A stretch of 64,000 nucleotides of DNA from a virus: IMG/VR virus record IMGVR_UViG_3300022555_000010, positions 64,001-128,000 of that record; one strand, given 5' to 3'. Each line of letters starts with the position of its first letter. Within the stretch, counting starts at the first letter, position 1. Under the pieces are notes generated by a model. It was not told the DNA's origin. It saw only the letters and a list, made by a program, of their open reading frames with translations, and did not search any database. Shown here piece after piece: positions 34,797-50,253 of this stretch. The translations under genes were made by a program, and so were the position numbers.

Positions 34797-34826
34797 TTGC
34801 ATCGCGATTCGCGAATAGCGTATAGT
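34797..34826 (+). promoter_or_regulatory. sigma70-like promoter of the tRNA cluster leader
   Basis: TTGCAT-18-TATAGT, ATG 6 nt downstream. Confidence 0.6.
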
Positions 34827-34832
34827 GAACGC

Positions 34833-34907
34833 ATGAAGACATCGTTGTCATATCTCTATCTGGTGAGTTGCTTATTTAATAGCAACTTCCGTAGGGGTAT
34901 GTCCTGA
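34833..34907 (+). CDS. candidate attenuator leader peptide MKTSLSYLYLVSCLFNSNFRRGMS
   Basis: 24 codons matching downstream tRNA anticodons; followed by terminator. Confidence 0.65.
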   Translation: MKTSLSYLYLVSCLFNSNFRRGMS

Positions 34908-34934
34908 TCTGACTTCATAAAACAGGATGTAGAC

Positions 34935-34973
34935 AAGCCCCACGGAGAGATCCGGAGGGGCTTTTGTGTTTTT
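34935..34973 (+). terminator. intrinsic terminator (candidate attenuator)
   Basis: AAGCCCC-A-CGGA-GAGA-TCCG-GA-GGGGCTT followed by TTGTGTTTTT. Confidence 0.75.
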
Positions 34974-35050
34974 GGGATTTGGGTTTGTCGTGACAGAATG
35001 TCGTGAGAAGTGTCGCGAGATGATATTCGCGAATAGAGAATGAATAGATT

Positions 35051-35127
35051 GGTGGGGTAGCTCAGTCTGGTAGAGCGTCGGCCTGAAGAGCCGAGCGTCG
35101 GGGGTTCAATTCCCTCCCTCACCACCA
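35051..35127 (+). tRNA. tRNA-Phe (GAA)
   Basis: cloverleaf, TCGGC-CTGAAGA-GCCGA, CCA. Confidence 0.95.
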
Positions 35128-35141
35128 AAGTTGAATAGATT

Positions 35142-35227
35142 GCTCGAATGGTGGAATGGCAGACACGTAGCCCTCAGAAGGCTATGGCCGTAAGGTTGTG
35201 GAGGTTCAAGTCCTCTTTCGAGCACCA
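35142..35227 (+). tRNA. tRNA-Leu (CAG)
   Basis: TAGCC-CTCAGAA-GGCTA, long variable arm, CCA. Confidence 0.95.
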
Positions 35228-35306
35228 GTGGATAGGGTGGAATTCCCTCGTGGGTCCGAATCCCACTCCGAGCAATCGGATGGCTGAGTGGTTTAAGGCA
35301 ATCCAC
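35228..35306 (+). ncRNA. minimal circularly permuted tRNA-like RNA
   Basis: GTGGAT/ATCCAC closing stem, V arm, T arm, TCCGA-GCAA-TCGGA closed acceptor, D arm. Confidence 0.7.
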
Positions 35307-35312
35307 AGTTTT

Positions 35313-35349
35313 GGAAGGATGGCAGAGTGGTCTAATGCGGCGGTCTTGA
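35313..35349 (+). pseudogene. 5' half of interrupted tRNA-Ser (TGA)
   Basis: GGAAGGA..GCGGTCTTGA; joins with 35960..36010 into a full tRNA. Confidence 0.9.
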
Positions 35350-35417
35350 TTATTGCAATTAAAAGTTGATAATTCAACTCTTGTAGAGAGTAGTCAATAC
35401 TATAAGGGAGAATTATT

Positions 35418-35879
35418 ATGCCAAGCAGGCTGTATTCGAGGGAAGTTCTTGAGCCGGTTGTTATAAATAGCAGATCTTTTCGAGATTTGACGATAAGGCT
35501 GGGTAAGAAACCACATGGAGGGTTGATAAATCATATAAAAAAGATTGTTGTTGGATTGGGAATAGATTGTTCGCATTTCAATCGTGGGGCTTGGAATAAG
35601 GGAGTGGTTTGGACTGGAAGAAGATCGGCTGAGGAAATTTTTTCGGGAGGAAAGATAGAGCCTGCCTATCGGTTGAAGAGGGCGTTATTAGAGATAGGTC
35701 GTGAGTGGAGTTGCGAGGTTTGTGGAATTAAAGATTGGATGGGGAAAGAAATAGACTTTGAGATTCATCATATTGATGGGGACAAAAAGAATAATACAAT
35801 TGTAAATTTGAGGATTGTTTGTCCTAATTGTCATTCTCAGAGTGGAAATTCAAGATTCAAGGGAAGGAAACATGGCTGA
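35418..35879 (+). CDS. HNH homing endonuclease
   Basis: CEVC..EIHHIDGDKKNN..NLRIVCPNCH. Confidence 0.9.
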   Translation: MPSRLYSREVLEPVVINSRSFRDLTIRLGKKPHGGLINHIKKIVVGLGIDCSHFNRGAWNKGVVWTGRRSAEEIFSGGKIEPAYRLKRALLEIGREWSCEVCGIKDWMGKEIDFEIHHIDGDKKNNTIVNLRIVCPNCHSQSGNSRFKGRKHG

Positions 35880-35954
35880 GTGGTCTAAGGCGGGTGTTTT
35901 GAAAACATCAGATGTTAATAGCATCCGTAGGTTCAAATCCTACTGTTTCCGCCA
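35866..35954 (+). tRNA. tRNA-Ser (TGA)
   Basis: GGAAACA/TGTTTCC-GCCA, loop TT TGA AA. Confidence 0.92.
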
Positions 35955-35959
35955 GTTGA

Positions 35960-36010
35960 AAACCGGAGTACCGAGAGGTATCGGGGGTTCAAATCCCTCT
36001 CCTTCCGCCA
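35960..36010 (+). pseudogene. 3' half of interrupted tRNA-Ser (TGA)
   Basis: AAACCGG, V arm, T arm, TCCTTCC-GCCA complementary to GGAAGGA at 35313. Confidence 0.9.
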
Positions 36011-36013
36011 GTT

Positions 36014-36101
36014 TTTCGAGGATCTTTTCGAGGCATTTAACTCGTTGAGATTCAAATGTTTGTGAGAATTTTCAGTCAAGATTTCGAGGATCTTTTCGAG
36101 G
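36014..36101 (+). repeat. 20-bp direct repeat TTTCGAGGATCTTTTCGAGG x2
   Basis: copies at 36014-36033 and 36082-36101, internally 12-bp periodic. Confidence 0.7.
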
Positions 36102-36211
36102 ATCTGATTGAAGACCTTATCCCTGGTGGATATTGTAATGGCAAATTGACAACTGAATAGTGAATAGCAAGGCGGCTGATCCGGGTTCTTGTACCGGGTC
36201 AGTCGTTGTAT

Positions 36212-36288
36212 GGGCGATTAGCTCAATTGGTCAGAGCGTCTGGTTTACACCCAGAAGGTTATCGGTTCGACCCCGGTATTGCCCACCA
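36212..36288 (+). tRNA. tRNA-Val (TAC)
   Basis: TCTGG-TTTACAC-CCAGA, CCA. Confidence 0.93.
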
Positions 36289-36300
36289 TTTTTTTTATTT

Positions 36301-36328
36301 CCGTATTCTGGGGAAGTTATGGCAATGT
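36301..36328 (+). promoter_or_regulatory. phage promoter-like motif, leaderless
   Basis: ATG 36335 six nt downstream. Confidence 0.75.
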
Positions 36329-36334
36329 GTAGGT

Positions 36335-36616
36335 ATGAACTACTACGATGAAATGAATAAAGTGCCGGAACATCTCAAGGGGATTGCTGATGTCGTTAAG
36401 ACACACACCCATCGAGATGTAAATGAGAAAGAGGCGTCCGAGATTGCCTTCGCACTCTTAGAGCTTGAAGGGAATAAAGTCATAATCAAAAAGATTGCGG
36501 ATTACATTCAGAGTCAGAATCAGCAGTTGCGATGGGCTTACGAGAGACACAACAAGTTCGCCGATGATGTTTTTCAATGGGTTCGCTGGGCGGCTAATTG
36601 GACATTGAGGAAATAA
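36335..36616 (+). CDS. hypothetical protein
   Basis: leaderless start after motif. Confidence 0.55.
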   Translation: MNYYDEMNKVPEHLKGIADVVKTHTHRDVNEKEASEIAFALLELEGNKVIIKKIADYIQSQNQQLRWAYERHNKFADDVFQWVRWAANWTLRK

Positions 36617-36625
36617 GGGAAATAT

Positions 36626-37072
36626 ATGGCACACAAACGCAAAGACACTTTGACGAAGTCTCCGGACTGGTGGAGACATCTTCGGCCTTTCAACAAACGG
36701 AAGGTGGCCAAGGCGGAACGTCGTGCAGCCAGGGCGGAAATCACGGAAGAGGACTATGAGGATGCCAAGGGGCTTGGTCTTCACAAAGAGCCATCGAAGA
36801 TGAGATGGTTGAGGGAGACGGATGGGGATTCGATTATTCCCCAGGGTTGTTACTGTTACGATCAGAAGGGAATTTGTCCTTACTGGGACAAGGCGGAGAA
36901 TAAACAGGAACAGAATAACGGGTATTGCTGGTTTCAGATGAGCGGGGATTGGGACGAGAAGGGCTGTGATCTTCTTTGGGATCAGTGTAAAAACTGCGGG
37001 AAGAACGATGTTGATGTTCCCGAGGGTATAATACAGGTGATAGCAGAGAAAGATGAGGAACCAAAATGTTAG
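36626..37072 (+). CDS. hypothetical Cys-rich protein
   Basis: IPQGCYCY..CPYW..GYC..LLWDQCKNCG. Confidence 0.6.
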   Translation: MAHKRKDTLTKSPDWWRHLRPFNKRKVAKAERRAARAEITEEDYEDAKGLGLHKEPSKMRWLRETDGDSIIPQGCYCYDQKGICPYWDKAENKQEQNNGYCWFQMSGDWDEKGCDLLWDQCKNCGKNDVDVPEGIIQVIAEKDEEPKC

Positions 37073-37341
37073 AAGTTGATTTAAGGAATGCTTTTGAGCC
37101 GGGGAGTAATGCTGACAATTTCTCGGTGTTGTTGCTTCGGTTGATTGCCAAGGCAGACGGGGACAACAAACTGAAGTTAAGTTTGGGTTATCCTGTTCAT
37201 GTGAAGGCAGTTTGGATTTATCAGAATCAGTGTCCGTATCGGGATATGAATCGGAGTGTGGTTGACTGGGCGGCAATCGCAACCCAGGCTTCCGAAGGAA
37301 AGGATTGTGATGAATGTCAAAATCATTTGGAGAGGCTTTAA
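37066..37341 (+). CDS. hypothetical protein
   Basis: GAGGA RBS. Confidence 0.5.
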   Translation: MLEVDLRNAFEPGSNADNFSVLLLRLIAKADGDNKLKLSLGYPVHVKAVWIYQNQCPYRDMNRSVVDWAAIATQASEGKDCDECQNHLERL

Positions 37342-37667
37342 GCCAGGGCATCCCGATAGTGTTGCTTCGTAAGGGTGATTGTCCGGAGGTTATTGGTGAG
37401 CCGGGGAAGGAACCAGAGGCTTTGGATACTTTGGATAAGATGAAGATAGTGAAGTTGACACGACCCCAGGATGGTCGAAAACCGAAGGGTGCGATACAGA
37501 ATTTCTCCGAGAAGCCGGTTCTGACAGATGAGGAACTTCTGGAAGAGTATGGTTGGGAGATGGAATGCTTGAGTCCGTTTGAGTTGAGGCATAAGGATGG
37601 GTCATTCTTATGCGGGAATCAGGCGAAAGATCTATTGAGGCAGTATCGAGAGGATGAGAAGAAATGA
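37314..37667 (+). CDS. hypothetical protein
   Basis: ORF. Confidence 0.5.
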   Translation: MSKSFGEALSQGIPIVLLRKGDCPEVIGEPGKEPEALDTLDKMKIVKLTRPQDGRKPKGAIQNFSEKPVLTDEELLEEYGWEMECLSPFELRHKDGSFLCGNQAKDLLRQYREDEKK

Positions 37668-37669
37668 TT

Positions 37670-37705
37670 CCCCGCATGGTGAAATTGGCAGACACAACGG
37701 ACTTA
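37670..37705 (+). pseudogene. 5' half of tRNA-Leu (TA-), truncated within the anticodon
   Basis: CCCCGCA TG GTG AAATTGGCAGA CAC A ACGGA CT TA. Confidence 0.8.
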
Positions 37706-37765
37706 CAATGCAGTGATGTCTTAATTATTATTTTATAATTCTTATCATAGTAGGGAGATACTACT

Positions 37766-38326
37766 ATGAAAAAGACTGATAATGAGATACGTGAGGCGGT
37801 TGTTGGATCTATTACGTATGCCGGGATTTTGATTAAATTAGGTCTTGTCCCAATGGGGGGAAATTACAAGACAATAAAGAGAAGAATACGAATTCTTGGT
37901 ATTTCGACAGAACATCTTAAGGGGAAGTCATGGAATCGGGGAGGAGTTGGAAAACGAAGTTATGCGAAGAAGTCCTTGGAGAGTGTAATGATAGAAGATT
38001 CTTCGTATTCGACTTTTAAACTCAAGAAGAGATTGTTCAGAGAGGGAATTTTTAAGAAAAAATGCAACAAGTGTGGAGGAGAACAGTGGCTGGGAAAGCC
38101 AATGCCATTAGAATTAGAACATAAAAATGGGAATAGTCACGATCACAGGATAGAGAATTTAGAGATACTTTGTCCCAACTGTCATTCTTTTACGGATACA
38201 TATCGAGGTCGGAAGTCTCGTGGGAAAAAGATTATGAAGGAAGAACGACGATGTTCTAACTGTAATGGTCGGGTGTCGTTAGGGTCGAAATCTGGATTGT
38301 GCTATTTATGTTCTCCAAAGTTTTGA
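37766..38326 (+). CDS. HNH homing endonuclease
   Basis: CNKC..LELEHKNGNSHDHRIENLEILCPNCH; similar to 35418. Confidence 0.9.
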   Translation: MKKTDNEIREAVVGSITYAGILIKLGLVPMGGNYKTIKRRIRILGISTEHLKGKSWNRGGVGKRSYAKKSLESVMIEDSSYSTFKLKKRLFREGIFKKKCNKCGGEQWLGKPMPLELEHKNGNSHDHRIENLEILCPNCHSFTDTYRGRKSRGKKIMKEERRCSNCNGRVSLGSKSGLCYLCSPKF

Positions 38327-38330
38327 AAAT

Positions 38331-38407
38331 GCCGGAGTGGTCCAATTGGCAGAGGCAACAGTTTTAAAAATTGTGTGTTGCGGGTTCGACTCCCGCCTTC
38401 GGCACCA
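38331..38407 (+). tRNA. tRNA-Leu (TAA), short variable loop
   Basis: ACAGT-TTTAAAA-ATTGT, 77 nt, CCA. Confidence 0.85.
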
Positions 38408-38537
38408 AGGAGAAACAAGATGACGGACGAGGAGATCGGACGGAGGTTGTTGAATATTGACGCCATTGCATATTCTCAATGGAGTTATTTGACAAGAACT
38501 TTGGGATGTATTGTGGTTGATGACGAAAGAGACTTTT

Positions 38538-38996
38538 ATGAAATTCAAGATACCGTGTGAGTGGACGGTGAGGACGGTCGAGGTGATCGAAGCCAAAAAT
38601 TTGGTAGATGCACAAGATAAGGCTTTCAAGTTGACTCGACCAAAGACATTGGAAGGCTGCAAGATTGAAGATCCTATTGGTGGGGGTCTGGATTGGAAGA
38701 CATTCAACAAGATGTATCCACCAAAGCCTCCGGCTGATCCGATGGAGGGTTGGACAAGGACAACTGATCCTGGGCCGTATCAGGGCGGGCAATGGGTGAA
38801 GGAGGCGAATGGGTGTGAGGTATTTGTCACCGGGGATACTGGGCCGATAGAGGTCGGGATGGGAATGACAACCTATTCGTGGAGTGTGTCGAAGCCTGGT
38901 CGTAATGACACTCTAACCTCGAAGAAGGATTTCGATAGGATTGAAGAAGCTCGTGATGCGGCATTGAAGGCATCGGAACGATGGAGTAAGATGTGA
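38538..38996 (+). CDS. hypothetical protein
   Basis: ORF. Confidence 0.55.
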   Translation: MKFKIPCEWTVRTVEVIEAKNLVDAQDKAFKLTRPKTLEGCKIEDPIGGGLDWKTFNKMYPPKPPADPMEGWTRTTDPGPYQGGQWVKEANGCEVFVTGDTGPIEVGMGMTTYSWSVSKPGRNDTLTSKKDFDRIEEARDAALKASERWSKM

Positions 38997-39169
38997 AGCC
39001 TGAAGTGATTAAGGGGATCAGGAAGCAGTCTGGGATGACTCAGACGGAGTTTGCAAAGGCGATGAGAGTATCATTCGCGACTGTAAACAGATGGGAGAAA
39101 GGACATTTTGTTCCACTCCCGGACAGACTGGATCGTTTGAAAGAGTTTAAACAAGGAATCGTGAAATGA
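38993..39169 (+). CDS. small XRE/Cro-like HTH regulator (58 aa, not in ORF track)
   Basis: IRKQSGMTQTEFAKAMRVSFATVNRWEKG; GTG start overlapping upstream stop. Confidence 0.75.
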   Translation: MKPEVIKGIRKQSGMTQTEFAKAMRVSFATVNRWEKGHFVPLPDRLDRLKEFKQGIVK

Positions 39170-39537
39170 AAAACAGGTTTGCGGAGATCGCGGAGAGAGT
39201 GGCGGCTAAGTATCAAGACATTGGTCATCAGCCTGGAGATAGACTCTGGTGGGTTGGCAATGATGGTAAGGTCAAGACCTTGGTGTCAACTGGTAAGGAG
39301 TTCCACCACGATATTGACGAGAATATCGATATGGATGCTCGGTGGCGTGGCCGTTTGGAAAAGGGTGGTATGTGTACTCTGTTACCACCGGTGCATCTGT
39401 ATGCGAAGTTCAAGGATGTGGAGGATATGCCTCTCCCGGATTCAGCGATGACGAAGTTGGAGAAACTGGGAGCGAAGCACTTCTATCTGGATACTCAGCG
39501 GGGTATGAATCGGATCAGTAAGACGGTTGTCCGGTGA
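39166..39537 (+). CDS. hypothetical protein
   Basis: coupled ORF. Confidence 0.55.
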   Translation: MKNRFAEIAERVAAKYQDIGHQPGDRLWWVGNDGKVKTLVSTGKEFHHDIDENIDMDARWRGRLEKGGMCTLLPPVHLYAKFKDVEDMPLPDSAMTKLEKLGAKHFYLDTQRGMNRISKTVVR

Positions 39538-39549
39538 ACTGGAGATTTT

Positions 39550-39585
39550 GGAAGAATGCCGTAACTGGTAGCGGGTCTGATTCGA
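39550..39585 (+). pseudogene. 5' half of tRNA-Ser (CGA), truncated after the anticodon
   Basis: GGAAGAA TG CCG TAACTGGTAG CGG G TCTGA TT CGA. Confidence 0.8.
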
Positions 39586-39630
39586 TTGTAATAATTGTTT
39601 GATATTTGCACCTAAAGTGGAGGTGCGAAT

Positions 39631-40479
39631 ATGAATAAGTGCAGATTTTGTGGAAAAGGCGGATTTGAAAAGCGGGGACTTCGAGAACACGAGAAGTATT
39701 GTCGGATAGTTCATCGTTATGTTGATATTGCGAAGGAAGAACTGGAAACAGGATTGTTGCTATGTGAGACGGGATGTGGTCTGCCAGCCAGATTTACATT
39801 GAAAGTTGGAAAGGTTTGTTGTTCTGAGTTTGTTCAGTCTTGCCCGGAGACAAAACGAAAAAACAGCCTTTCAAAGAGTGGTGAGCATAATCCAAGAGGC
39901 ATGTTGGGTAAAAAGACCGGAAGACTCGGAAGGAAGAATGTGGATGTCTTTGGTGTTGTCGTGGCAGGTCGAATAAGTAAAAAGATTTCCAATAGGTTGA
40001 CTGGTAAAGTTACAGGGATGGCATCAACAGTTGGAAATGAGATTGAGAGAGTTCGTAAGATTTCTGATGCGGCAAAAAAGAATACTTACGGAAATTATGG
40101 AGGATACAAGAGGGGAGCAGGAAGAGGGAGACACGGATGGTATAAAGGTATCTGGTTTGACTCTTCCTGGGAATTAGCGTGGATCATATTCAATATTGAT
40201 CACGGGATTCAGTTTGAGAGAAATAGTGATAGGTTTGAATATCAATGGGATGGAAAGACTCATAAGTATCTTCCAGACTTCAAAATGGCTGATGGGAAGT
40301 ATGTAGAAGTTAAATCGTGGTTGAATGACAAGGTGGTTGCAAAATTAAAGGCGTGTCCAGGAGTTCTTGTTTTAATGAAGAAGGAGATGGAGCCGTTTAT
40401 TCAGTATGCAATTAGAAAATATGGTAAAGACTTTGTTAAGGATTTTGAGATTAAAAGGAAGAATGTCCGAACTGGATAA
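39631..40479 (+). CDS. PD-(D/E)XK-type putative homing endonuclease
   Basis: DSSWEL..YLPDF..YVEVK; N-terminal Cys motifs. Confidence 0.75.
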   Translation: MNKCRFCGKGGFEKRGLREHEKYCRIVHRYVDIAKEELETGLLLCETGCGLPARFTLKVGKVCCSEFVQSCPETKRKNSLSKSGEHNPRGMLGKKTGRLGRKNVDVFGVVVAGRISKKISNRLTGKVTGMASTVGNEIERVRKISDAAKKNTYGNYGGYKRGAGRGRHGWYKGIWFDSSWELAWIIFNIDHGIQFERNSDRFEYQWDGKTHKYLPDFKMADGKYVEVKSWLNDKVVAKLKACPGVLVLMKKEMEPFIQYAIRKYGKDFVKDFEIKRKNVRTG

Positions 40480-40544
40480 GGAGTCTGCCTCGAAAGCAGA
40501 TGTACCGAAAGGTATTGGGGGTTCGAGTCCCTCTTCTTCCGCCA
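40457..40544 (+). tRNA. tRNA-Ser (CGA)
   Basis: TCTGC-CTCGAAA-GCAGA, V arm, GCCA. Confidence 0.92.
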
Positions 40545-40747
40545 CACCGAGTGAGATTGTTTATATCAGTAAGGGAGTTTTGTTGAAGGAGATGGCGGAT
40601 CTGGGCATCAATATCAACAGTGTTACGGCTGATGGGATAGTGAGTTCGGCAAAGATGGTGATTGTTGATGGGATTGTGGTGAAGAATCGGGATGGTAAGA
40701 CCGGGGCGAATGTCTCGGGAACGATAGTGGTCGATGATGAGAAAGAT

Positions 40748-40822
40748 TGGCGAGTAGCTCAATGGTAGAGTATCCGGCTGTTAACCGGGTTGTTGGAGGT
40801 TCAAGTCCTCTCTCGCCAGCCA
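40748..40822 (+). tRNA. tRNA-Asn (GTT)
   Basis: TCCGG-CTGTTAA-CCGGG, GCCA. Confidence 0.93.
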
Positions 40823-40828
40823 AATATT

Positions 40829-41152
40829 ATGAAACAAGAACTGATAGATCTATGGCAGCAGATGGCCGATCTGACAAAGGAAAAGTGTCAGAAGTCCTGT
40901 AGGAATATGGGAGCATGTTGCAGTGGAGAATACTGTGAACTCGCCGCCGAGACGATGGAGAAGGCCGGTGAGAAGGTTCCCCCGATGCCTTTCGTAGTGG
41001 ACGGGAAGTGTTCTATTCCTCCTCATTACAGGCCGATATGTGCATTACATCAGTGTGATATTGGCAGTCTTGGGTTTATGAAGGGGGACCCGGACTTGAC
41101 AAAGAGATATTTTGATTTGAGATTCAAGTTGGAAGACTTGGCAGAATTTTAA
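40829..41152 (+). CDS. hypothetical Cys-rich protein
   Basis: C..C..CC..C..RPIC..C cluster. Confidence 0.55.
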   Translation: MKQELIDLWQQMADLTKEKCQKSCRNMGACCSGEYCELAAETMEKAGEKVPPMPFVVDGKCSIPPHYRPICALHQCDIGSLGFMKGDPDLTKRYFDLRFKLEDLAEF

Positions 41153-41315
41153 TTCCGATAGTACCTTCAGCAATGGGATACTTCTAAAAAAACAGGTGCC
41201 CGAAAGGGCGTGAAGGTTCGAGTCCTTCCTCTGTGGCTAATAACTGCGGAGTGGTGGAATTGGCAGACACGCCTGCAAAAAAAGACCCATTGTGATTTTC
41301 GGTATTGTAGGAATT
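41151..41315 (+). ncRNA. YrlA-type Y RNA-like RNA (long terminal stem plus permuted tRNA-Leu-like domain)
   Basis: terminal stems AATTCC/GGAATT, ATAGTACC/GGTATTGT, CAATGGG/CCCATTG; inner order V arm, T arm, closed acceptor, D arm. Confidence 0.75.
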
Positions 41316-41321
41316 TTATTT

Positions 41322-41349
41322 CCGTATTGAGACAAGACATCTGCAATGT
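41322..41349 (+). promoter_or_regulatory. phage promoter-like motif
   Basis: CCGTAT-N15-GCAATGT. Confidence 0.75.
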
Positions 41350-41371
41350 ATGTGCATTAGGAGATGAGATT

Positions 41372-41590
41372 ATGTTGGGACTTAAAAAGAGGGCTGAGGA
41401 TCGTAAACTGGAAAATGATCTATACTTATCTCGTCGTGGGTATGATTACGCGGCCGGGAGATTGTTACGAGGTGGGAATGTCAAGAATCTCTATGAGGAG
41501 GCGGCGAGATGTGATGATCATAGAGAGCCTTTTACGATTGGGGTTTGTGATGCAGTCAGGGACTGGGAGAAGAAAGGGAAAGTGGGATGA
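41372..41590 (+). CDS. hypothetical protein, paralogue of 43484
   Basis: MLGLKKRAE..RRGYD..AG..LRG. Confidence 0.55.
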   Translation: MLGLKKRAEDRKLENDLYLSRRGYDYAAGRLLRGGNVKNLYEEAARCDDHREPFTIGVCDAVRDWEKKGKVG

Positions 41591-42336
41591 AAGTGTTTTT
41601 AACGAGTGGGGGAACAAAGACCCCGATAGACAGTGTCAGGCACGTAGGGAATATGTCAAAGGGGACATTTGGTTGTCATCTCTGTAATGCCTTTTTGAAA
41701 ATGGGGCATACGGTTCACTATTTTTACGCCAAGGACAGTAAGGCACCTCACGATTTCAGGCTGAATCTCAAAGAGGTTGGTTCGAGAGAAGCGATGGAGA
41801 CATTATTGGAGAGCTATGATTTCCTCGATGATTTTGGGGATCGATACATACCAATGGAATATTCTGATTTCAACTCCTATGCAGAAGGTCTGAAAAAGAT
41901 GCTTGGTTCTGGTTTGTTTGATTTGCCGGATGTTGTGGTTTTAGCGGCGGCAGTAAGTGATTATGCCCCGGTAAAGCACGAAGGCAAGATCAGTTCGGAT
42001 CTGGATAAGATGGTCATCGAGTTCGAGAAGACTCCGAAGTTGATCAGGCAGATTCGGGATTTCTGTCCGAAAACATTCCTGGTGGGGTTCAAGTTGCTTG
42101 TTGGAAGCACCCAGGACGAGTTGCTGGAGGCGATGAAGAAGCAGATGAAAGTTGCGAAGACGGATATGGTTGTCGGGAATGACCTGAGGGATATCCGGGC
42201 GGACAAACATTCGTTGACTATTTTGAGGGCAGACGGGGGAATCTCCGGGTTCTCTGGGATGTCGGGTGATAAATTGGCGGAATATCTTGTGGGATCTATT
42301 GATATCTTACAGGGAAGAAAGAAACGGTTGGCATGA
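41587..42336 (+). CDS. coaB: phosphopantothenate-cysteine ligase (CoaB-like)
   Basis: LTSGGT..IDSVR..NMSKGTFG, AAAVSDY, KISS, LVGFKL, VVGND. Confidence 0.85.
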   Translation: MKVFLTSGGTKTPIDSVRHVGNMSKGTFGCHLCNAFLKMGHTVHYFYAKDSKAPHDFRLNLKEVGSREAMETLLESYDFLDDFGDRYIPMEYSDFNSYAEGLKKMLGSGLFDLPDVVVLAAAVSDYAPVKHEGKISSDLDKMVIEFEKTPKLIRQIRDFCPKTFLVGFKLLVGSTQDELLEAMKKQMKVAKTDMVVGNDLRDIRADKHSLTILRADGGISGFSGMSGDKLAEYLVGSIDILQGRKKRLA

Positions 42337-43481
42337 ATATTTTACTTGGATTGACAGGAAGTGTGGCGACAAAGATTGCCCCGAAGATCATTGAGGCTTT
42401 GGAGGCGATTCCGAATTGTTCTGAGGTCAGGGTGATAATGACTGACAAGGCGGCAATGTTTTACAACCCGGAGGCATTGGCCAGGGTTTCAGGGGTCAAG
42501 GTCTACACGGAGGGAGACGAGTGGACCTGGCGGAAGGAAATCAAGGCGATCGGTCATGCTACGGTTCAATGTCTTGCAACAGACAAATGGGAAAAGGGAC
42601 TACCCATTCAGCATATTGAGTTGGTGAAGTGGGCTTCTTGTCTGGTGATTGCTCCGGCGACGGCGAACACGATTGGGAAGATGGCCAATGGGCTGTGTGA
42701 CAATCTGCTGACTTCGGTGTTTACGGCCTGGGATCGGAATCGGCCGGTGATTATGGCACCGGCGATGAACACCATGATGTTACATTCGCCTGCGGTAGTT
42801 CATAATATGGAGACGTTGCAGAAGATGGGTGTTCTGATGGTGCCGACAGTCAAGAAGGAATTGGCTTGTGGGGACACAGGAGATGGGGCCTTGGCAGATG
42901 CCTCGGATATTGCTCGGGTGGCCGCCAGGGAGATTCAGTGGCTATTTCCGTTCAATCTGGTGTCACCGATCAGGGGAATCCCGGTTGGGAGTCACCCAGG
43001 AGCCTTTGGAGCAATGAGGAAGCATGACAGACATTGTGGAGTGGACTTGTATTGCAACAATGGGACGCCGGTTGTTTTGGTTGAAGATGGCCGGGTGGTA
43101 AGCATTGAACCATTCACCGGGAAAGATGCTGGATGTCCTTGGTGGCTGGATACGAAGGTTGTGAAGGTGGAAGGGGCCAGTGGGGTCGTTTGTTACGGAG
43201 AGATTGAGCCTCGGGACTATGTTCAGGTTGGAAAGGTGTATCGGAAGGGGTGTCAGATTGGGAATGTGATCCCGGTGTTGAAGCCGGAGAAGCATCGTCC
43301 GGATATCCCTGGGCATTCGTGTTGTATGCTTCATCTTCAGATGTTCAGTCACGGGACATATAATCTGAAGGATGAGTTCAACAGTCACGAAGAATTGCCG
43401 GACTATATCATTGATCCGACACCGTATCTGTTGGGGGCGGTTGGGGCAAAGGATATTAAGAAGTTGGATGTGAAGGTGTAA
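42333..43481 (+). CDS. coaC: phosphopantothenoylcysteine decarboxylase (CoaC) fused to an M23 peptidase-like domain
   Basis: GLTGSVA, HIEL, APATANT, PAMN, LACGDTGDG; C-terminal HCGVD..MLH. Confidence 0.8.
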   Translation: MNILLGLTGSVATKIAPKIIEALEAIPNCSEVRVIMTDKAAMFYNPEALARVSGVKVYTEGDEWTWRKEIKAIGHATVQCLATDKWEKGLPIQHIELVKWASCLVIAPATANTIGKMANGLCDNLLTSVFTAWDRNRPVIMAPAMNTMMLHSPAVVHNMETLQKMGVLMVPTVKKELACGDTGDGALADASDIARVAAREIQWLFPFNLVSPIRGIPVGSHPGAFGAMRKHDRHCGVDLYCNNGTPVVLVEDGRVVSIEPFTGKDAGCPWWLDTKVVKVEGASGVVCYGEIEPRDYVQVGKVYRKGCQIGNVIPVLKPEKHRPDIPGHSCCMLHLQMFSHGTYNLKDEFNSHEELPDYIIDPTPYLLGAVGAKDIKKLDVKV

Positions 43482-43483
43482 CA

Positions 43484-43699
43484 ATGTTTGGATTTAAGAA
43501 AAGAGCCGAGGCAAAGAGGCACGAAGAGAACCCGAGTCCTAGGAGGAGAGGATATGATTCTATCGCAGGGGGAATATTGAGGGGTTGGAATATTGATTCA
43601 CACATTGATAATTTTATGTTGGAGGGACCGGGAAGTGTTGAGGATGGCGAGGAAGAGGCGATAAGGGATTGGATGAAAATGAGAGGATTTAAACAATGA
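43484..43699 (+). CDS. hypothetical protein, paralogue of 41372
   Basis: MFGFKKRAE..RRGYD..AG..LRG. Confidence 0.55.
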   Translation: MFGFKKRAEAKRHEENPSPRRRGYDSIAGGILRGWNIDSHIDNFMLEGPGSVEDGEEEAIRDWMKMRGFKQ

Positions 43700-43828
43700 G
43701 AAAGTCTACAGCGAGTCCAAAGAGTACGAAGATCAAGAATGGTTGCACTCGGACGAAGAGGAGTTCAGGGTGTGTCGGGTCGGCAATTGCTCGGACTCGT
43801 GAACGAAGGAAGTGTCGGTAAGTATTTT

Positions 43829-43858
43829 GACGGGTTAGCCAAGTGGTTAGGCAGGTCT
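43829..43858 (+). pseudogene. 5' half of a tRNA-Cys-like gene, truncated at the anticodon loop
   Basis: GACGGGT TA GCC AAGTGGTTA GGC A GGTCT; same layout as the downstream Cys tRNA. Confidence 0.7.
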
Positions 43859-43915
43859 TGAAAAAGCATTGACTTGACAGGCCAGTAATAGCATTATTCA
43901 GGGAATGGAGGTGCT

Positions 43916-44629
43916 ATGAAAAAGAACGAAGAAATTAAAATCAAGGCAAGAGATTTGAGGTCGCTCGGATTATCTGTTGGAGATATTTCAAAAAAACTTT
44001 CAGTCTCTTATGGCTCAGTTGGTAACTGGGTTCGTGACATTATTCTGGACGAAGAACAGAAGAAGAATATCTCAAATATTCGTCAAAAGGAAGTTCAGCG
44101 TGTTTTCGATCTTCCCTTAGAGATTTTTGATAAAATGATTGAAGACGGCTTAAGCCAGAAAATGATTGCTGATAAATTGGGAGTATCTTTGGGAATAATG
44201 AGTCGAGTGTTCAAATCGAAGGGGCTATCAGGAAGAACGCCTAAAGGTCAGAGACCCGTATTTGGTTTGAGCGATTGTAAGATTTGTGGAGTTCCCAGAA
44301 AAACATGGCGAGGAGGAACTTGTCCTACTTGTGTGTCGAAAATTAGACGTTTAAAAACGAAGATTAGGGCAGTAAAGGAGTTGGGTGGGAAATGTAAAAG
44401 TTGTTCGTGGGAACCAACAAGTCGTGAGGTTGCGGCGATGGAATTCCATCATAAAGGTGGAGATAAAAAAGAATTTGAGATAGGTAAGAAGATGAATCAT
44501 AAGTGGGAAACTTTACTTCCAGAAATCAGGAAGTGTAAATTGTTGTGTTCTCGATGTCACAGGATTGAGCACAGTCGAGTAGATCCATTGTTTGATTTTA
44601 TATTTGATCAAGATGATAAGATGCGATGA
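43916..44629 (+). CDS. HTH plus HNH homing endonuclease
   Basis: two HTH-like segments; CKSC..MEFHH..KEF..CKLLCSRCH. Confidence 0.8.
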   Translation: MKKNEEIKIKARDLRSLGLSVGDISKKLSVSYGSVGNWVRDIILDEEQKKNISNIRQKEVQRVFDLPLEIFDKMIEDGLSQKMIADKLGVSLGIMSRVFKSKGLSGRTPKGQRPVFGLSDCKICGVPRKTWRGGTCPTCVSKIRRLKTKIRAVKELGGKCKSCSWEPTSREVAAMEFHHKGGDKKEFEIGKKMNHKWETLLPEIRKCKLLCSRCHRIEHSRVDPLFDFIFDQDDKMR

Positions 44630-44693
44630 CCGAGAGGTTAGGTGGTTCTCTGCAAAAGAACATAGGCTGGTTCGAGTCCAGTTCGCATCTCCA
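44620..44693 (+). tRNA. tRNA-Cys (GCA)
   Basis: GTTCT-CTGCAAA-AGAAC, TCCA end. Confidence 0.93.
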
Positions 44694-44702
44694 AAATTTT
44701 TC

Positions 44703-44789
44703 GGGGAGTTAGCCAAGCGGCAACGGCGGCAGACTGTAAATCTGTTTCTCTAACGAGGTTCAAAGGTTCGAGTCCTTTACTCCCCACCA
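44703..44789 (+). tRNA. tRNA-Tyr (GTA)
   Basis: GCAGA-CTGTAAA-TCTGT, V arm, CCA. Confidence 0.93.
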
Positions 44790-44827
44790 ATTATTAGTGA
44801 TCAGTAATATATCGGTGAACAGTAATA

Positions 44828-45073
44828 ATGAGCAGAAGGATCAGATACACCAAGCAGAGAGCCTTATTGGGATCTTTGATTACAAGGGATGGTCTAAAAT
44901 GTCACTGGTGTCATAGGGAATGTGACCCGAAGGCTAATAATGGAAGTCCTGGATATCCGACCGTGGAGCATCTGAAGAGGCAATGTGAGGGTGGAACGGA
45001 TGACCCGGTGAATCTGGTGGTGGCTTGTTTGAAGTGTAATAGTGGGAGACATTTGCCTGGGTGGACTCCGTGA
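44828..45073 (+). CDS. small HNH endonuclease
   Basis: RDG..CHWC..TVEHL..GGTDD..NLVVACLKCN. Confidence 0.8.
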   Translation: MSRRIRYTKQRALLGSLITRDGLKCHWCHRECDPKANNGSPGYPTVEHLKRQCEGGTDDPVNLVVACLKCNSGRHLPGWTP

Positions 45074-45293
45074 TTGATGGAGTGGTCAATGGATTGATTC
45101 AGGAAGCGTCCTACCCGGATTGCAGTTATTGGCAGTTGCATATTTGTGGATGTGGGCAGGCTTCGGTTCGGCATCTTGTTGAGGGAGATCACAAGGGCTG
45201 GATCATGGGATGTAATTGTCGGACCGGGCTGGATTTGTTGGGATGGTTGCCGATAGGAGTTGTCCCGGCAGTGGATGAGGTAGATGAGTCGTT

Positions 45294-45383
45294 GGAAGGA
45301 TGGCAGAGTGGTAATGCAGCGGTTTGCTAAACCGTACAAGGTGTAAAAGTCTTGCGTGAGTTCAAGTCTCACTCCTTCCGCCA
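45294..45383 (+). tRNA. tRNA-Ser (GCT)
   Basis: GCGGT-TTGCTAA-ACCGT, V arm, GCCA. Confidence 0.93.
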
Positions 45384-45415
45384 AAATGTGTTTGGGGTGG
45401 AACCCTGATATAACG

Positions 45416-45539
45416 GTCCGTGATGCTGAAAGCTGAAGCGGGTAGCTGTTGATTGCTTCCAAAGCGACACAGAAAGTCGGTTGACTGTAGTGCGAGGTCA
45501 GCCTTTTAAATAGGCAGTAAAAACCTGCATCGGACGCCA
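45416..45539 (+). ncRNA. structured tRNA-like ncRNA candidate ending in GCCA
   Basis: GTCCG..CGGAC-GCCA terminal stem, hairpin with TTCCAAA loop, GGTTGAC/GTCAGCC hairpin. Confidence 0.4.
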
Positions 45540-45547
45540 ATTATCTT

Positions 45548-45575
45548 CCGTATTCTGTGGTACAATCTGCAATGT
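45548..45575 (+). promoter_or_regulatory. phage promoter-like motif, leaderless
   Basis: ATG 45582 six nt downstream. Confidence 0.75.
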
Positions 45576-45581
45576 CTTTAT

Positions 45582-45752
45582 ATGAAACTCCCAAACTACT
45601 TCTTAGATGATTGCTGTAAGAAGAAGCCGGGAGTCGAGTGGGATGGTGGGGAGATCACGGCTAAGTGCCGCAAGTGTGGGGACTTGGTCACAAATCGAGA
45701 GATGTGGAAATTGATGATTGCCTGGAATAAGAAAAAAAGAGGGTTGAAATGA
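45582..45752 (+). CDS. 56-aa Cys-containing leaderless ORF (not in ORF track)
   Basis: MKLPNYFLDDCC..CRKC..AWN; ATGA overlap with next gene. Confidence 0.55.
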   Translation: MKLPNYFLDDCCKKKPGVEWDGGEITAKCRKCGDLVTNREMWKLMIAWNKKKRGLK

Positions 45753-46117
45753 AGGACCAATCGGACTGGATATCGTTGATGAATGACAATGCTTTCATCT
45801 CTCTTGCAGATGTTAAGAAATGGTTGAATATTGGAACGGCCTGGCAAATGAGGAGATTGGTTGAGTATCAGTCGTTTCCGATGCCGGCATATGGGACTTC
45901 TCAAACGGCCAGGATGTCTCGGGGATGTCGGTGGAGAGTCGGAGATATCAGGGAATGGTTGAAGACGGGTAAATGTGTGAATGGTTGTGCTGAGATGTCA
46001 GAAAGACTTACGACCAGGATTGCGTCGGCTGAACGCAGAAGGTTGAACGGGAATCGGATTGCGAAGATTTACAGGGATTTGGATAGTAAGGGGTTAAAGC
46101 TTGGCGATAGGCCTTAA
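45749..46117 (+). CDS. AlpA/excisionase-like DNA-binding protein
   Basis: SLADV..FPMP..RWRVGDIREWL. Confidence 0.55.
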   Translation: MKDQSDWISLMNDNAFISLADVKKWLNIGTAWQMRRLVEYQSFPMPAYGTSQTARMSRGCRWRVGDIREWLKTGKCVNGCAEMSERLTTRIASAERRRLNGNRIAKIYRDLDSKGLKLGDRP

Positions 46118-46127
46118 GGGATAATTT

Positions 46128-46322
46128 ATGAAAGCGTATGGAGTTCCTCGGATTTGTGATGCTGAGTATTGTGACAAGGCGGATATCAAGAAGTACGGCA
46201 GGGCGACCGTGGATCGGTGTTCTCGGGCGGACAGGGGTAAGAACACGGCTCGTCGTATCTGGGCTAAAAAGGCTCGTCGTGATGGTAAAAAGGAAACGAT
46301 TCTTTCCGTATCGGCAGCCTAA
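46128..46322 (+). CDS. small basic hypothetical protein
   Basis: MKAYG..KKARR. Confidence 0.5.
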   Translation: MKAYGVPRICDAEYCDKADIKKYGRATVDRCSRADRGKNTARRIWAKKARRDGKKETILSVSAA

Positions 46323-46333
46323 TTCGGCAATGT
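46306..46333 (+). promoter_or_regulatory. phage promoter-like motif, leaderless
   Basis: ATG 46340 six nt downstream. Confidence 0.75.
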
Positions 46334-46339
46334 ATAGGT

Positions 46340-46597
46340 ATGAAAATGACAATACAAGGACAGGTTAAGGAATGTGCGGTCGCGATTCTGTATGCAAACC
46401 GTGGCAAACTGGGTGGAATCAACTTCCGGTACAATCTGAATCATTTTGGTGAGGCGATGCGTAAACACATGGCAGGGATCAAAGAGGAAGGTCTTGCGGT
46501 TCCCCAGGCGACTCTCAAGCTCGTGGCACGGGCTGAGAAGGTCTTGAATGAAGAATGTGACGGTAAGGATTGTTCATTTCAGAAGGTGGCAGTATGA
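46340..46597 (+). CDS. hypothetical protein
   Basis: leaderless start. Confidence 0.55.
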   Translation: MKMTIQGQVKECAVAILYANRGKLGGINFRYNLNHFGEAMRKHMAGIKEEGLAVPQATLKLVARAEKVLNEECDGKDCSFQKVAV

Positions 46598-47019
46598 GTA
46601 AATTAACGATAAAGGTGATGAGGCATGTTCGGGATCAGATTGAACAGGCGACCAAAGAACTTAAGGCGATGGATGCCAAAAAGGGAAAGTATCATGGGGC
46701 ACTTGCCTTCAGTCATTGGGCGGAATGGAATCTGATGGCTTATGTAAATCAAGAGGCTCGGTTGGCTGAATGGGAACAGTTCAAGGCGAGCATCGAGGCT
46801 CGGCTCAAAGAGGGATATGAGGACGATAACATTGTTCGTTGGATTGAGGGTTGGCGAGATGGTCTGGTGGAGATAGTCATGGGTGGGTATGCTCAACACA
46901 GCACGAATCAGATCGCCAACATGATCGAGGCTGAGAAGATTGATGTGAAGCGAAAGATGGCCGGGATGAGGATGATTGACTCGGGATCTTTGGAAGAACT
47001 GCTTTCAAATTTAAAATAA
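46594..47019 (+). CDS. hypothetical protein
   Basis: ATGA coupled. Confidence 0.55.
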   Translation: MSKLTIKVMRHVRDQIEQATKELKAMDAKKGKYHGALAFSHWAEWNLMAYVNQEARLAEWEQFKASIEARLKEGYEDDNIVRWIEGWRDGLVEIVMGGYAQHSTNQIANMIEAEKIDVKRKMAGMRMIDSGSLEELLSNLK

Positions 47020-47059
47020 ACAATCTCGGGGATGTTCCGGGAGTGTATAATGTGACTTG

Positions 47060-47342
47060 GGAAAGAGACGAGCGTTCGCTTTGATGAGTCCGATAAATCA
47101 TGGCTGCGAGTGTGAGTCTGGCACAAGCGGGGGCAATTAGAAGTTCCTGGGTTATCCCCAAAGGTGGTTCAGGACAATAGACCAATGGCTATGAAGAATG
47201 AGAGTATATGTTCAAAAGACATATATAGCCATACCGTGCGAGAAGCGTCAGTCTGATAAACGGCATCTTTAGTCGGTGAACCGTGGCGTTGAAATAATAC
47301 GTCAGCAAAAAGGACAGTGGAAAACCCACCTCGTCTCTTTCC
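47060..47342 (+). ncRNA. ~283-nt structured ncRNA candidate
   Basis: perfect 13-bp closing stem, internal hairpins, upstream TATAAT, downstream T tract. Confidence 0.65.
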
Positions 47343-47383
47343 TTTTCTGTTTTCGTTTTTATGATATTGTGGGTGAGTAGATT

Positions 47384-47466
47384 GCAGGTATGGCGAAATT
47401 GGCAGACGCACCAGACTCAAAATCTGGCGAGAAATCATGTGGGTTCAAGTCCCTCTACCTGTACCA
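47384..47466 (+). tRNA. tRNA-Leu (CAA)
   Basis: CCAGA-CTCAAAA-TCTGG, CCA. Confidence 0.93.
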
Positions 47467-47593
47467 AAGTTATTCGGAGGAGAGGATAATCCGTTAGGAC
47501 GGGAGATAGTAAACGGACCCTCATGAGAATACGAAAGCGTCGGTCGCACCCCGTATGCGGACTTCGGCTAACCAGTTACACTCAGGAGAAAAT

Positions 47594-48226
47594 ATGAACG
47601 TAAAATTAGTATGGATCACACCGGACGCCGAGAAATTTATCGCTTATTGTGCAAGGGTTTCGAATCCGGCCAACCAGGATAACCCGGATATTGAAGGTCT
47701 GATTCGGTATTGCATCAAGCACAAGCATTGGTCACCATTTCAGATGGCGAATGTCTGTGTCGAGGTAAATACGAGCCGGGCGATTACGGCTCAGATTGCC
47801 AGACACTCATCGTTGTCTATTCAGGAATTCAGTCAACGGTATGCCAAGGTTCAATCATTTGAGCCGATAGAAATCAGGAGACAGGACACGAAGAACCGGC
47901 AGAATTCGATTGATGACTTGCCTGTTGACCTCAAGGAATGGTGGAAGACAGAATGTGATAAGGTCCTGGAAGGGGCATCAAAGTTGTATTCTGAGGCGGT
48001 GGCGAAGGGGATAGCGAAAGAGTGTGCCAGGTTTGTTCTCCCGATGGCGTCTTCGAGTCGTATGTATTTGAATGGGAACGTCAGATCGTGGTTGCACTAT
48101 CTTGAAGTGAGGACAGGGCCTGACACACAGAAGGAGCATCGGGATATTGCTTTTGCGATTAAGGACATTATGACAGAACAGATGCCGTTGATAGCGAGGG
48201 CGACCGGGTGGACCGTTGATCATTAA
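47594..48226 (+). CDS. thyX: FAD-dependent thymidylate synthase
   Basis: HWSPF, QIARHSSLSIQEFSQRY, ECARFVLP, TQKEHR; AGGAG RBS. Confidence 0.93.
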   Translation: MNVKLVWITPDAEKFIAYCARVSNPANQDNPDIEGLIRYCIKHKHWSPFQMANVCVEVNTSRAITAQIARHSSLSIQEFSQRYAKVQSFEPIEIRRQDTKNRQNSIDDLPVDLKEWWKTECDKVLEGASKLYSEAVAKGIAKECARFVLPMASSSRMYLNGNVRSWLHYLEVRTGPDTQKEHRDIAFAIKDIMTEQMPLIARATGWTVDH

Positions 48227-48240
48227 TTATGAGATAATTT

Positions 48241-48326
48241 GCTCGGGTGGTGAAATGGCAGACACATCAGTTTGAGGGGCTGATGACCGCAAGGTCGTGG
48301 GGGTTCAAGTCCCCCTTCGAGCACCA
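48241..48326 (+). tRNA. tRNA-Leu (GAG)
   Basis: TCAGT-TTGAGGG-GCTGA, V arm, CCA. Confidence 0.93.
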
Positions 48327-48335
48327 GGTTGAATT

Positions 48336-48419
48336 GCCGGTATGGTGAAATTGGCAGACACGTTAGCCTTAGAAGCTAATGCCGTAAGCGTGGGGGTTCA
48401 AGTCCCTCTACCGGCACCA
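48336..48419 (+). tRNA. tRNA-Leu (TAG)
   Basis: TTAGC-CTTAGAA-GCTAA, CCA. Confidence 0.93.
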
Positions 48420-48620
48420 TTTAGAAAGAGAAGGTAAAGATGAAATGCTGTATATGTAACGAAGAAGTGGACACAACGGTCAGTCAGATTCCTCCGACAT
48501 GGTATGGAACATTTCGAGGTGAGAAGATGTTGGCAGTTATACACGACAAGTGTATTGAGGAGCCTGGAGTCCGTGATCGCTGGATCAAGGGAGAGTTTTA
48601 CGACCTTGCTAAAGAGTAAT

Positions 48621-48708
48621 GGAAGAATGCTGTAATTGGTTAGCAGGCATCGTTGGAAACGATGTGTGGTGAAAGCCATTGTGAGTTCGAGTCTCACTTC
48701 TTCCGCCA
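48621..48708 (+). tRNA. tRNA-Ser (GGA)
   Basis: CATCG-TTGGAAA-CGATG, V arm, GCCA. Confidence 0.93.
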
Positions 48709-49600: not shown

Positions 49601-49607
49601 TTTTTTT

Positions 49608-49682: not shown

Positions 49683-49704
49683 AAACTAAAAGGAGAAACA
49701 AGGT

Positions 49705-50229: not shown

Positions 50230-50253
50230 CCTTTTCTGGGTGATGATGGATTG

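Follow-up and report, generated by a model that had tools for sequence, protein, structure and literature searches.

A predicted leader-peptide attenuator carrying codons for phage-encoded tRNAs upstream of a phage tRNA gene array

In the enterobacterial thr leader the regulatory codons are those of Thr and Ile, and in the leaders of ilvGMEDA and ilvBN they are those of Ile, Leu and Val. These leaders combine a short promoter-proximal ORF, in which runs of regulatory codons are used, with the helices 1:2, 2:3 and 3:4 and an intrinsic terminator; multiple amino acids are sensed, and when the ribosome stalls on a regulatory codon the antiterminator is released. The decision of the trp attenuator, the classical case, is kinetic. 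The pheST attenuator of E. coli, with its pheM leader, senses one amino acid and has a synthetase as its output. T-box elements contain no ORF and bind one uncharged tRNA directly via a specifier codon and the T-box sequence. A full-text search of the literature found no description of a leader-peptide attenuator placed before tRNA genes.

The element analysed here precedes the tRNA gene array of a phage and is probably a ribosome-mediated (leader-peptide) attenuator that gates the tRNA operon through the decoding of the codon set of the phage tRNAs. In its mode of action it would come closest to the multivalent leaders of thr and ilv, with which it shares the short promoter-proximal ORF, the three alternative helices with an intrinsic terminator and, as predicted, the sensing of multiple amino acids; the same stalling logic is proposed for it. 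Unlike these leaders, it is phage-borne and the genes that it would regulate are tRNAs, not biosynthetic enzymes. Its codons are mostly single, in contrast to the runs of the known leaders, and represent 13–14 tRNA species of 8 amino acids, among them synonymous codons that different isoacceptors decode. The phage leader has no sequence or Rfam kinship with the thr and ilv leaders. With pheST it would share leader-peptide attenuation of a component of the translation apparatus, whose output raises the charged tRNA sensed as short, but the output of the phage element would be the tRNAs themselves, and many species would be sensed. Like the T-box, it would answer to tRNA status by transcription antitermination ahead of genes for translation supply; it differs from the T-box by an ORF that is predicted to be translated and by the lack of a T-box motif. 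The T-box family RF00230 (stem I specifier loop, T-box sequence) gave no Rfam match, neither at the gathering threshold nor at E values as high as 10. The Rfam leader families (Leu, Thr, His, Trp, Phe and others) gave no match either, and only chance-level matches to unrelated families were obtained, the best covariance-model match being RcsR1, with 19 bits vs a gathering score of 60.

The window, that is, the whole stretch of DNA analysed (64,000 nucleotides), comprises bases 64001–128000 of the 151.8-kb IMG/VR virus record IMGVR_UViG_3300022555_000010. The same phage is also represented by metagenome contigs as long as 342 kb. The sequence of positions 34797–34973 matches the preliminary description of this DNA to the base. 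The features of the locus, in window coordinates, are the following.

34797..34826, plus strand: sigma-70-type promoter, TTGCAT at 34797–34802, an 18-nt spacer and TATAGT at 34821–34826, with an A/T-rich stretch upstream
34807..34818, no strand assigned: copy 1 of ATTCGCGAATAG (10-bp palindrome ATTCGCGAAT), within the promoter spacer
34833..34907, plus strand: leader ORF, 24 codons and TGA, predicted leaderless; the proposed sensing zone is codons 4–19
34850..34863, plus strand: segment 1 (AUAUCUCUAU..GG), 5′ arm of the anti-antiterminator helix 1:2 in the MFE fold
34865..34888, plus strand: inner hairpin GAGUUGCU / AGCAACUU, inside the ORF
34889..34910, plus strand: segment 2 (CCGUAGGGGUAUGUCCUGAUCU), which can pair with segment 1 or segment 3 and holds the last codons and the stop
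34923..34945, plus strand: segment 3 (CAGGAUGUAGACAAGCCCCACGG), 3′ strand of the antiterminator, overlapping the 5′ arm of the terminator
34935..34973, plus strand: intrinsic terminator, AAGCCCC-A-CGGA-GAGA-UCCG-GA-GGGGCUU followed by UUGUGUUUUU
35025..35036, no strand assigned: copy 2 of ATTCGCGAATAG, 14 nt upstream of tRNA-Phe
35051..49682, plus strand: block proposed to be regulated, 15 tRNA genes with interspersed HNH endonuclease and other ORFs
50257..50292, plus strand: next strong intrinsic terminator, −19.1 kcal/mol, followed by TTTTTGTTTT

On re-reading of the sequence, the anatomy given in the preliminary description proved to be accurate. The promoter TTGCAT-18-TATAGT is base-exact; the frame, the ATG and the TGA of the 24-codon ORF are as described; the hairpin AGTTGCT/AGCAACT is present in the ORF, and the terminator at 34935–34973 folds at about −19 kcal/mol. 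The coding sequence of the leader is MKTSLSYLYLVSCLFNSNFRRGMS, with the stop TGA at 34905–34907. Since the −10 hexamer TATAGT ends 6 nt before the ATG at 34833, the leader mRNA is predicted to be leaderless, and the ORF, which has no Shine–Dalgarno (SD) sequence, would need leaderless initiation from the predicted start site. The terminator hairpin occupies positions 34935–34963, with a folding energy of −19.3 kcal/mol, and its U-tract extends up to 34973. A search of this genome with nhmmer gave a single match to the leader and no second copy.

The whole genome contains 16 tRNA genes, as predicted by ARAGORN and Rfam, and every one of them is inside the window. One of them, for tRNA-Met-CAU, precedes the leader, and the remaining 15 follow it as Phe-GAA, Leu-CAG, Ser-UGA, Val-UAC, Leu-UAA, Ser-CGA, Asn-GUU, Cys-GCA, Tyr-GUA, Ser-GCU, Leu-CAA, Leu-GAG, Leu-UAG, Ser-GGA and Gly-GCC. 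The first of these genes, tRNA-Phe at 35051, is separated from the terminator by a 77-nt spacer, in which a consensus scan found no promoter. A terminator scan found no intrinsic terminator on the plus strand between 34973 and 50257, and therefore all 15 tRNAs can share one transcript. The terminator at 50257..50292 is likely to be the end of the tRNA transcription unit, and internal promoters may operate within the 15-kb array beside the shared transcript.

The search for relatives in the GenBank phages, using DNA and the neighbouring 1202-aa protein, gave merely distant tRNA or domain matches. In IMG/VR, no match was found for the exact leader 22-mer, the upstream 132-aa ORF or the glycosyltransferase. 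The 132-aa ORF had only identical copies in the protein collection, and the leader was 100% identical in all eight contigs read; as the contigs with the identical ORF carry the identical leader, they give no comparative information. The 1202-aa glycosyltransferase encoded 1.4 kb upstream has about 25 full-length metagenome homologues with 44–72% identity. The common gene order of their contigs is glycosyltransferase, tRNA-Met, a few ORFs and the tRNA array, and the arrays of the relatives start, as in the window, with Phe-GAA, Leu-CAG, Ser-UGA, Val-UAC, Leu-UAA, Ser-CGA, Asn, Cys and Tyr. A leader-like ORF with a terminator before the array was found in this way at seven loci (L010, L012, L014, L017, L018, L020 and L021). 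Besides, metagenome contigs were scanned with a degenerate 20-mer motif that represents the ORF end (AGGGGTNTGYYCTGAYCTGA). The scan detected 28 loci, including 18 chance matches and 10 loci with a leader, counted as five new distinct sequences and five full or partial copies of known leaders; the distinct leaders added were L022, L024, L032, L036, L040 and L043. The resulting family comprises 14 distinct leaders, namely that of the window and 13 homologues from related uncultured phages, and the glycosyltransferase identity of the leader-bearing relatives is 46–72%. Being homologous to one another, the 14 leaders are no independent samples, and the statistics given below reflect what selection has kept and not independent inventions.

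The conservation of the ORF before homologous tRNA clusters, the absence of which had been set in advance as grounds for abandoning the proposal, is thus borne out by 13 further homologues. They keep the SD sequence and the start codon, the structural position of the stop, the terminator, both alternative helices and the codon repertoire. The ORF has 24–28 codons in all 14 leaders, and its frame is retained despite many indels and substitutions. An SD sequence (GGAG, AGGAG, GAGGA or AAGGA) is located 5–12 nt upstream of the ATG or GTG in 13/13 relatives, where the 5′ UTR measures 24–80 nt; the window phage alone is without a UTR. A short promoter-proximal ORF with start signals is therefore found upstream of the tRNAs throughout the family, with an SD sequence in 13 of the 14 leaders and a leaderless AUG in the window. 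Every ORF is closed by the motif TGA-YCTGA, situated at the 3′ end of segment 2. A TTGCAx/TTGACG-17/18-TATAGT-like promoter, sitting behind an A/T-rich stretch, precedes all 14 leaders (12 detected by an automatic scan and two by eye). An intrinsic terminator, consisting of a GC-rich hairpin of −17 to −30 kcal/mol and a U-tract, lies between the ORF and the tRNAs in each of them.

In nine of the 13 relatives (L010, L014, L020, L021, L022, L024, L032, L036/L043 and L040) the first tRNA or its remnant begins 0–16 nt past the U-tract, the remnant being a 5′ half left by the insertion of a homing endonuclease. This leaves no space for another promoter, so that transcription of the tRNAs must cross the terminator. 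A terminator that abuts a tRNA in this way is hard to square with a plain gene end.

The equilibrium fold is the same in all 14 leaders and consists of a long hairpin within the ORF followed by the terminator. The long hairpin encloses the inner hairpin by the pairing of segment 1 (..AGUCUCUUU..) and segment 2 (..GGGAGGGGU..). RNAalifold, applied to a plain MAFFT alignment, gave a consensus of the inner hairpin and the antiterminator with 9 compensatory pairs. In helix 2:3, 87.7% of cells are paired and 11 are double-change cells, values of which neither was reached by any of 500 shuffles, and the pairing is best at slide 0. Helix 1:2 with the inner hairpin is 83.5% paired vs at most 58% when slid, includes 8 double-change pairs and is likewise best at slide 0; for the inner hairpin, 95% of cells are paired and 3 pairs are changed on both sides. 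The helices 1:2 and 2:3 share alignment columns 73–84 and hence exclude each other. Thus, two mutually exclusive helices are conserved with compensatory changes.

The consequences of ribosome stalling were simulated by masking the ribosome footprint and folding the transcript before the 3′ arm of the terminator exists. In the simulation of a stall at codons 3 to ~17, segment 2 takes 11–18 nt of the 5′ arm of the terminator. When the ribosome has arrived at the final codons or the stop, 0–1 such nt are paired in 13 of the 14 leaders and 5 in L014, the leader with the weakest terminator and antiterminator. The antiterminators of the family range from −22 to −34 kcal/mol, compared with −17 to −30 kcal/mol for the terminators, and in 11/14 leaders the antiterminator is better than that of dinucleotide shuffles of segment 2 at the level of 2.5% or below.

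In the window itself the antiterminator is the weakest of the family: 9 bp and GGGG:CCCC across a bulge, the version of the preliminary description, give −14.3 kcal/mol, and an alternative register gives −16.6 kcal/mol, or −19.3 kcal/mol with three further pairs. The pairing proposed in the preliminary description stood with one amendment. The 9-bp helix 34898–34906/34923–34931 exists, but on folding it alone coexists with the terminator, and the antiterminator pairing GGGG(U):(G)CCCC competes with the terminator only before the 3′ arm of the latter is transcribed. At equilibrium, the fold of the full-length window leader keeps the terminator under every ribosome mask, so the predicted decision in this phage must be kinetic, as in trp. 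The equilibrium fold was also considered as counter-evidence to the switch, and this objection was dropped: folding before the 3′ arm is made yields the antiterminator, and the antiterminators of the relatives are far stronger.

The codons of the leader are the second line of evidence. Codons 4–19 of the window leader are all decoded by tRNAs encoded downstream, GTG via wobble of Val-UAC; all four Leu and all five Ser codons differ, and 14 of the 15 tRNA species are covered, CTA being missing. In these points, too, the preliminary description was confirmed on the sequence. For a scan of coverage, each codon was mapped to its primary phage tRNA in six frames over the whole genome. Among about 303,000 stretches of 21 codons in the six frames of the 151.8 kb, the stretch starting at codon 4 of the leader is the unique maximum with its 14 species, and 13 species are reached at one other, unrelated place only. 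The run of 16 codons belonging to the set read by the phage tRNAs (in-set codons) is the second longest of the genome, and only 32% of codons in the long ORFs of the phage are in-set. The probability of covering 14 species is P < 2e-5 with random genome codons, P = 0.001 when 18 in-set codons are sampled according to genome usage and P = 0.004 with the peptide fixed and synonymous codons resampled by phage codon usage. The tRNA-species coverage of the window leader exceeds chance.

Each of the 14 leaders covers 13–14 of the 15 tRNA species of the window, and CTA is never used. Given the number of in-set codons alone, the evenness of coverage has P = 0.001–0.035 in 13 of the 14 leaders; the synonymous choice, conditional on the peptide, is significant in some leaders only. 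In a codon-aware alignment, where the sensing zone corresponds to columns 4–23 and variants beyond the commonest codon of each column were counted, 55 of the 60 variant codon types (92%) remain in the phage-tRNA set, compared with an expectation of 55% for single-nucleotide neighbours (P = 6e-10). Two of the five out-of-set types are the Val codons GTC and GTT. The amino acid often changes (S/N/L/C/G/V/Y/F) while the codon stays in-set, as in the columns S/L/T/N, S/N/G/L/C and L/V/N/C. As the codons stay in-set despite chemically unrelated residues, selection seems to act on membership of the set and not on the peptide. The unpaired positions (the hairpin loops and codons 4–7) are also in-set, and therefore RNA pairing fails to explain the pattern.

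The zone in which a stall is productive and the in-set codons overlap (Fisher P = 9e-7), whereas segment 2, made up of the final five or six codons, is exempt from the constraint. The amino acids of the sensing zone are almost exclusively Leu, Ser, Val, Phe, Tyr, Cys, Asn and Gly, that is, those of the phage tRNAs, and Ala, Ile, Thr, Pro and charged residues are lacking. Codons cognate to the tRNAs of the array are thus sited where the simulated footprint yields the antiterminator. The features by which a leader-peptide attenuator is recognised at the level of sequence are all present.

The expectation that leader codons co-vary with tRNA content in related phages did not hold as a one-to-one match in the one relative concerned, G001, the sole relative whose full tRNA set was read, the other loci being partial. 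G001 has 13 downstream tRNAs, of which its leader covers 11. This leader contains TCC and GGT without the genes of Ser-GGA and Gly-GCC, and lacks TCG despite a gene of Ser-CGA; in the window, CTA is unused although tRNA-Leu(UAG) is present. The mismatch in G001 indicates that the match is one of a shared repertoire, not of a strict one-to-one list.

The trp/his-type attenuation logic of the preliminary description is therefore supported by the conservation, the alternative helices, the codons kept within the set and, in most relatives, the absence of space for another promoter. In the proposed mechanism, transcription would start from the TTGCAT/TATAGT promoter and a ribosome would read the 24-codon leader. 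A ribosome that reaches the last codons or the stop would cover segment 2 (..GGGGUAUGUCCUGA..), the terminator would form, and the polymerase would halt before tRNA-Phe. With no ribosome, segments 1 and 2 would pair, and the terminator would likewise form. A ribosome lingering at codons ~3–16 would hold segment 1 and leave segment 2 free for segment 3, the 5′ arm of the terminator; with 2:3 formed, no terminator would arise and the polymerase would enter the tRNA array. Both the translation of the leader and the kinetic competition between the helices are predicted from the sequence and from the modelled folds.

Slow decoding of any codon of the set would then raise tRNA synthesis, and an ample supply would shut it off, the net result being a demand-driven feedback loop on tRNA supply. 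With an ORF composed almost entirely of phage-tRNA codons and a switchable terminator, the tRNAs are probably made only under slow reading. The trigger in the cell would be slow decoding of the set, for which host shut-off, tRNA decay or turnover, amino-acid limitation and a tRNA-cleaving defence nuclease are candidate causes; cleavage by anticodon nucleases, named in the preliminary description, is one of several possibilities. It is also quite possible, and we hold this more tentatively than the attenuator itself, that the leader is a multiplex sensor of tRNA availability, in which any one loss would turn on the whole replacement array and recovery would turn it off again. Such a leader would have been selected to hold one or two codons for nearly every phage tRNA species.

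An architecture of the helices 1:2, 2:3 and 3:4 would work with any slow codon, and the element could be a generic translation-coupled attenuator that senses ribosome availability, the pace of the ribosome with the polymerase or global starvation, the codons being a by-product of the structure and of a Leu/Ser-rich peptide. The imperfect fit to the tRNA content agrees with this, as does the pairing, which fixes several codons (AGU CUC UUU in segment 1, UGC UAU UC / AAU AGC in the inner hairpin). However, the unpaired loops and codons 4–7 are in-set too, the variant codon types stay in-set across amino-acid changes, in 13 of the 14 leaders the tRNA species are covered with uncommon evenness, and neither a structure-driven sequence nor a hydrophobic peptide needs to avoid Ala, Ile, Thr, Pro and charged residues. 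We regard a generic attenuator as unlikely. The same data bear on the view that the locus is a separate small gene for a micropeptide of 24–28 aa or an sRNA of ~140 nt, with an unregulated terminator and the tRNAs supplied by constitutive leak-through or other promoters. A promoter, ~140 nt and a terminator are indeed the anatomy of an sRNA gene, the fold has a z-score of −3.9, and the peptide has the conserved core SLFS.SCYS..NS..GRGLL. Moreover, activity in trans is possible for the terminated RNA of an attenuator and for its leader peptide, rnTrpL/peTrpL being the example (PMC6614838, PMC7298713). The lack of selection on a reading frame that would mark a stand-alone sRNA is not what the family displays, as frame, start and stop are retained in all 14 leaders, and no Rfam family was matched. 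Unrelated residues are tolerated at peptide positions if the codon is in-set, the tRNAs abutting the U-tract in nine of 13 relatives place the terminator inside the tRNA transcription unit, and a conserved compensatory helix competing with the terminator would be pointless for a plain one. The small-gene view is accordingly rated as improbable.

Control by a protein, with a DNA- or RNA-binding protein of the phage or host setting tRNA expression and the ORF being secondary, would have a candidate site in the palindrome ATTCGCGAAT, which brackets the leader. The 12-nt motif ATTCGCGAATAG occurs only twice in the 151.8-kb genome, once within the promoter spacer and once 14 nt upstream of tRNA-Phe, and the palindrome in the promoter spacer is possibly an operator or a recombination scar. 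It is absent from the promoters of the relatives, and all of them lack the motif while still keeping the ORF and the alternative helices, so the palindrome would be at most an extra layer in this phage; a protein-controlled switch appears very improbable. The leader-peptide attenuator responding to the decoding of the phage-tRNA codons is the preferred reading.

Why phages carry tRNA genes is still debated, and the switch described here bears on this question. The roles proposed for phage tRNAs include codon compensation and the sustaining of translation during host tRNA decay. Escape from tRNA-cleaving defences is also among the proposed roles (PMC10264068, PMC12409363). If the attenuator is real, the tRNA supply of these phages would be regulated by demand and not constitutive, and a shortage of these particular tRNAs would be a selective problem for them. 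It would extend classical attenuation to tRNA genes and to a new codon logic, with one codon per isoacceptor vs runs. With its length of ~180 nt, the element allows a direct test of what phage tRNA genes do, and it may represent a natural biosensor of tRNA availability. For the phages themselves, it would constitute a phage-encoded, self-limiting answer to tRNA depletion.

No intrinsic terminator was found on the + strand across window positions 34973-50257, a stretch of 15.3 kb which contains all 15 tRNA genes and about 25 ORFs. Strong terminators flank it at each end, at 33633-33657 and 50257-50283. The tRNA-Met(CAU) gene (34221-34297) is located upstream of the leader ORF of the proposed attenuator, both in the window phage and in its relatives, and is therefore beyond the control of the attenuator. 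Throughout the window (1-64000), the GC skew is strongly positive, ranging from +0.15 to +0.34, and all long ORFs are carried by the + strand.

Two genes within the tRNA array, at 41587-43481, are CoaB-like (PF04127, the C-terminal domain of DFP) and CoaC-like (PF02441), the second encoding a flavoprotein. The C-terminal M23-peptidase domain match of the latter is weak and sub-threshold in Pfam; for a phage, this pairing is odd. A 652-aa protein encoded shortly downstream of the tRNA operon (50379-52337) possesses collagen triple-helix repeats (PF01391) in five stretches.

The 12-mer ATTCGCGAATAG, containing the 10-bp palindrome ATTCGCGAAT, is present in only two copies in the 151.8-kb genome, which flank the leader on both sides:

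34807-34818, copy 1, in the promoter spacer
35025-35036, copy 2, 14 nt 5' of tRNA-Phe

It is absent from the relatives. The pair may represent an operator pair or a scar of the event that deleted the 5' UTR in the window phage.

The array is full of homing-endonuclease cassettes, in which tRNA fragments adjoin HNH endonuclease genes and are followed by intact tRNA copies. One fragment (approximately 35313-35349) is the 5' half of a tRNA-Ser and stops in the anticodon loop. The fragments and HNH cassettes lie in the window at:

35228-35349
35418-35879
37766-38326
43916-44629
33745-34230

The relative L021, whose neighbouring glycosyltransferase is 46% identical, has a tRNA with the amber-reading CUA anticodon, a tmRNA-like gene and a tRNA-like sequence, not called by ARAGORN, which begins immediately past the leader terminator (jointly, 15726-15799, 23360-23510 and 20664-20745).

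In two other relatives, the tRNA-Phe immediately abutting the leader terminator is represented by its 5' half only:

L014 16523-16553, tRNA-Phe 5' half
L020 16541-16566, tRNA-Phe 5' half

In both loci an HNH gene is inserted and an intact tRNA-Phe copy is found beyond it, which indicates that the first regulated tRNA has been displaced from the attenuator by the insertion.
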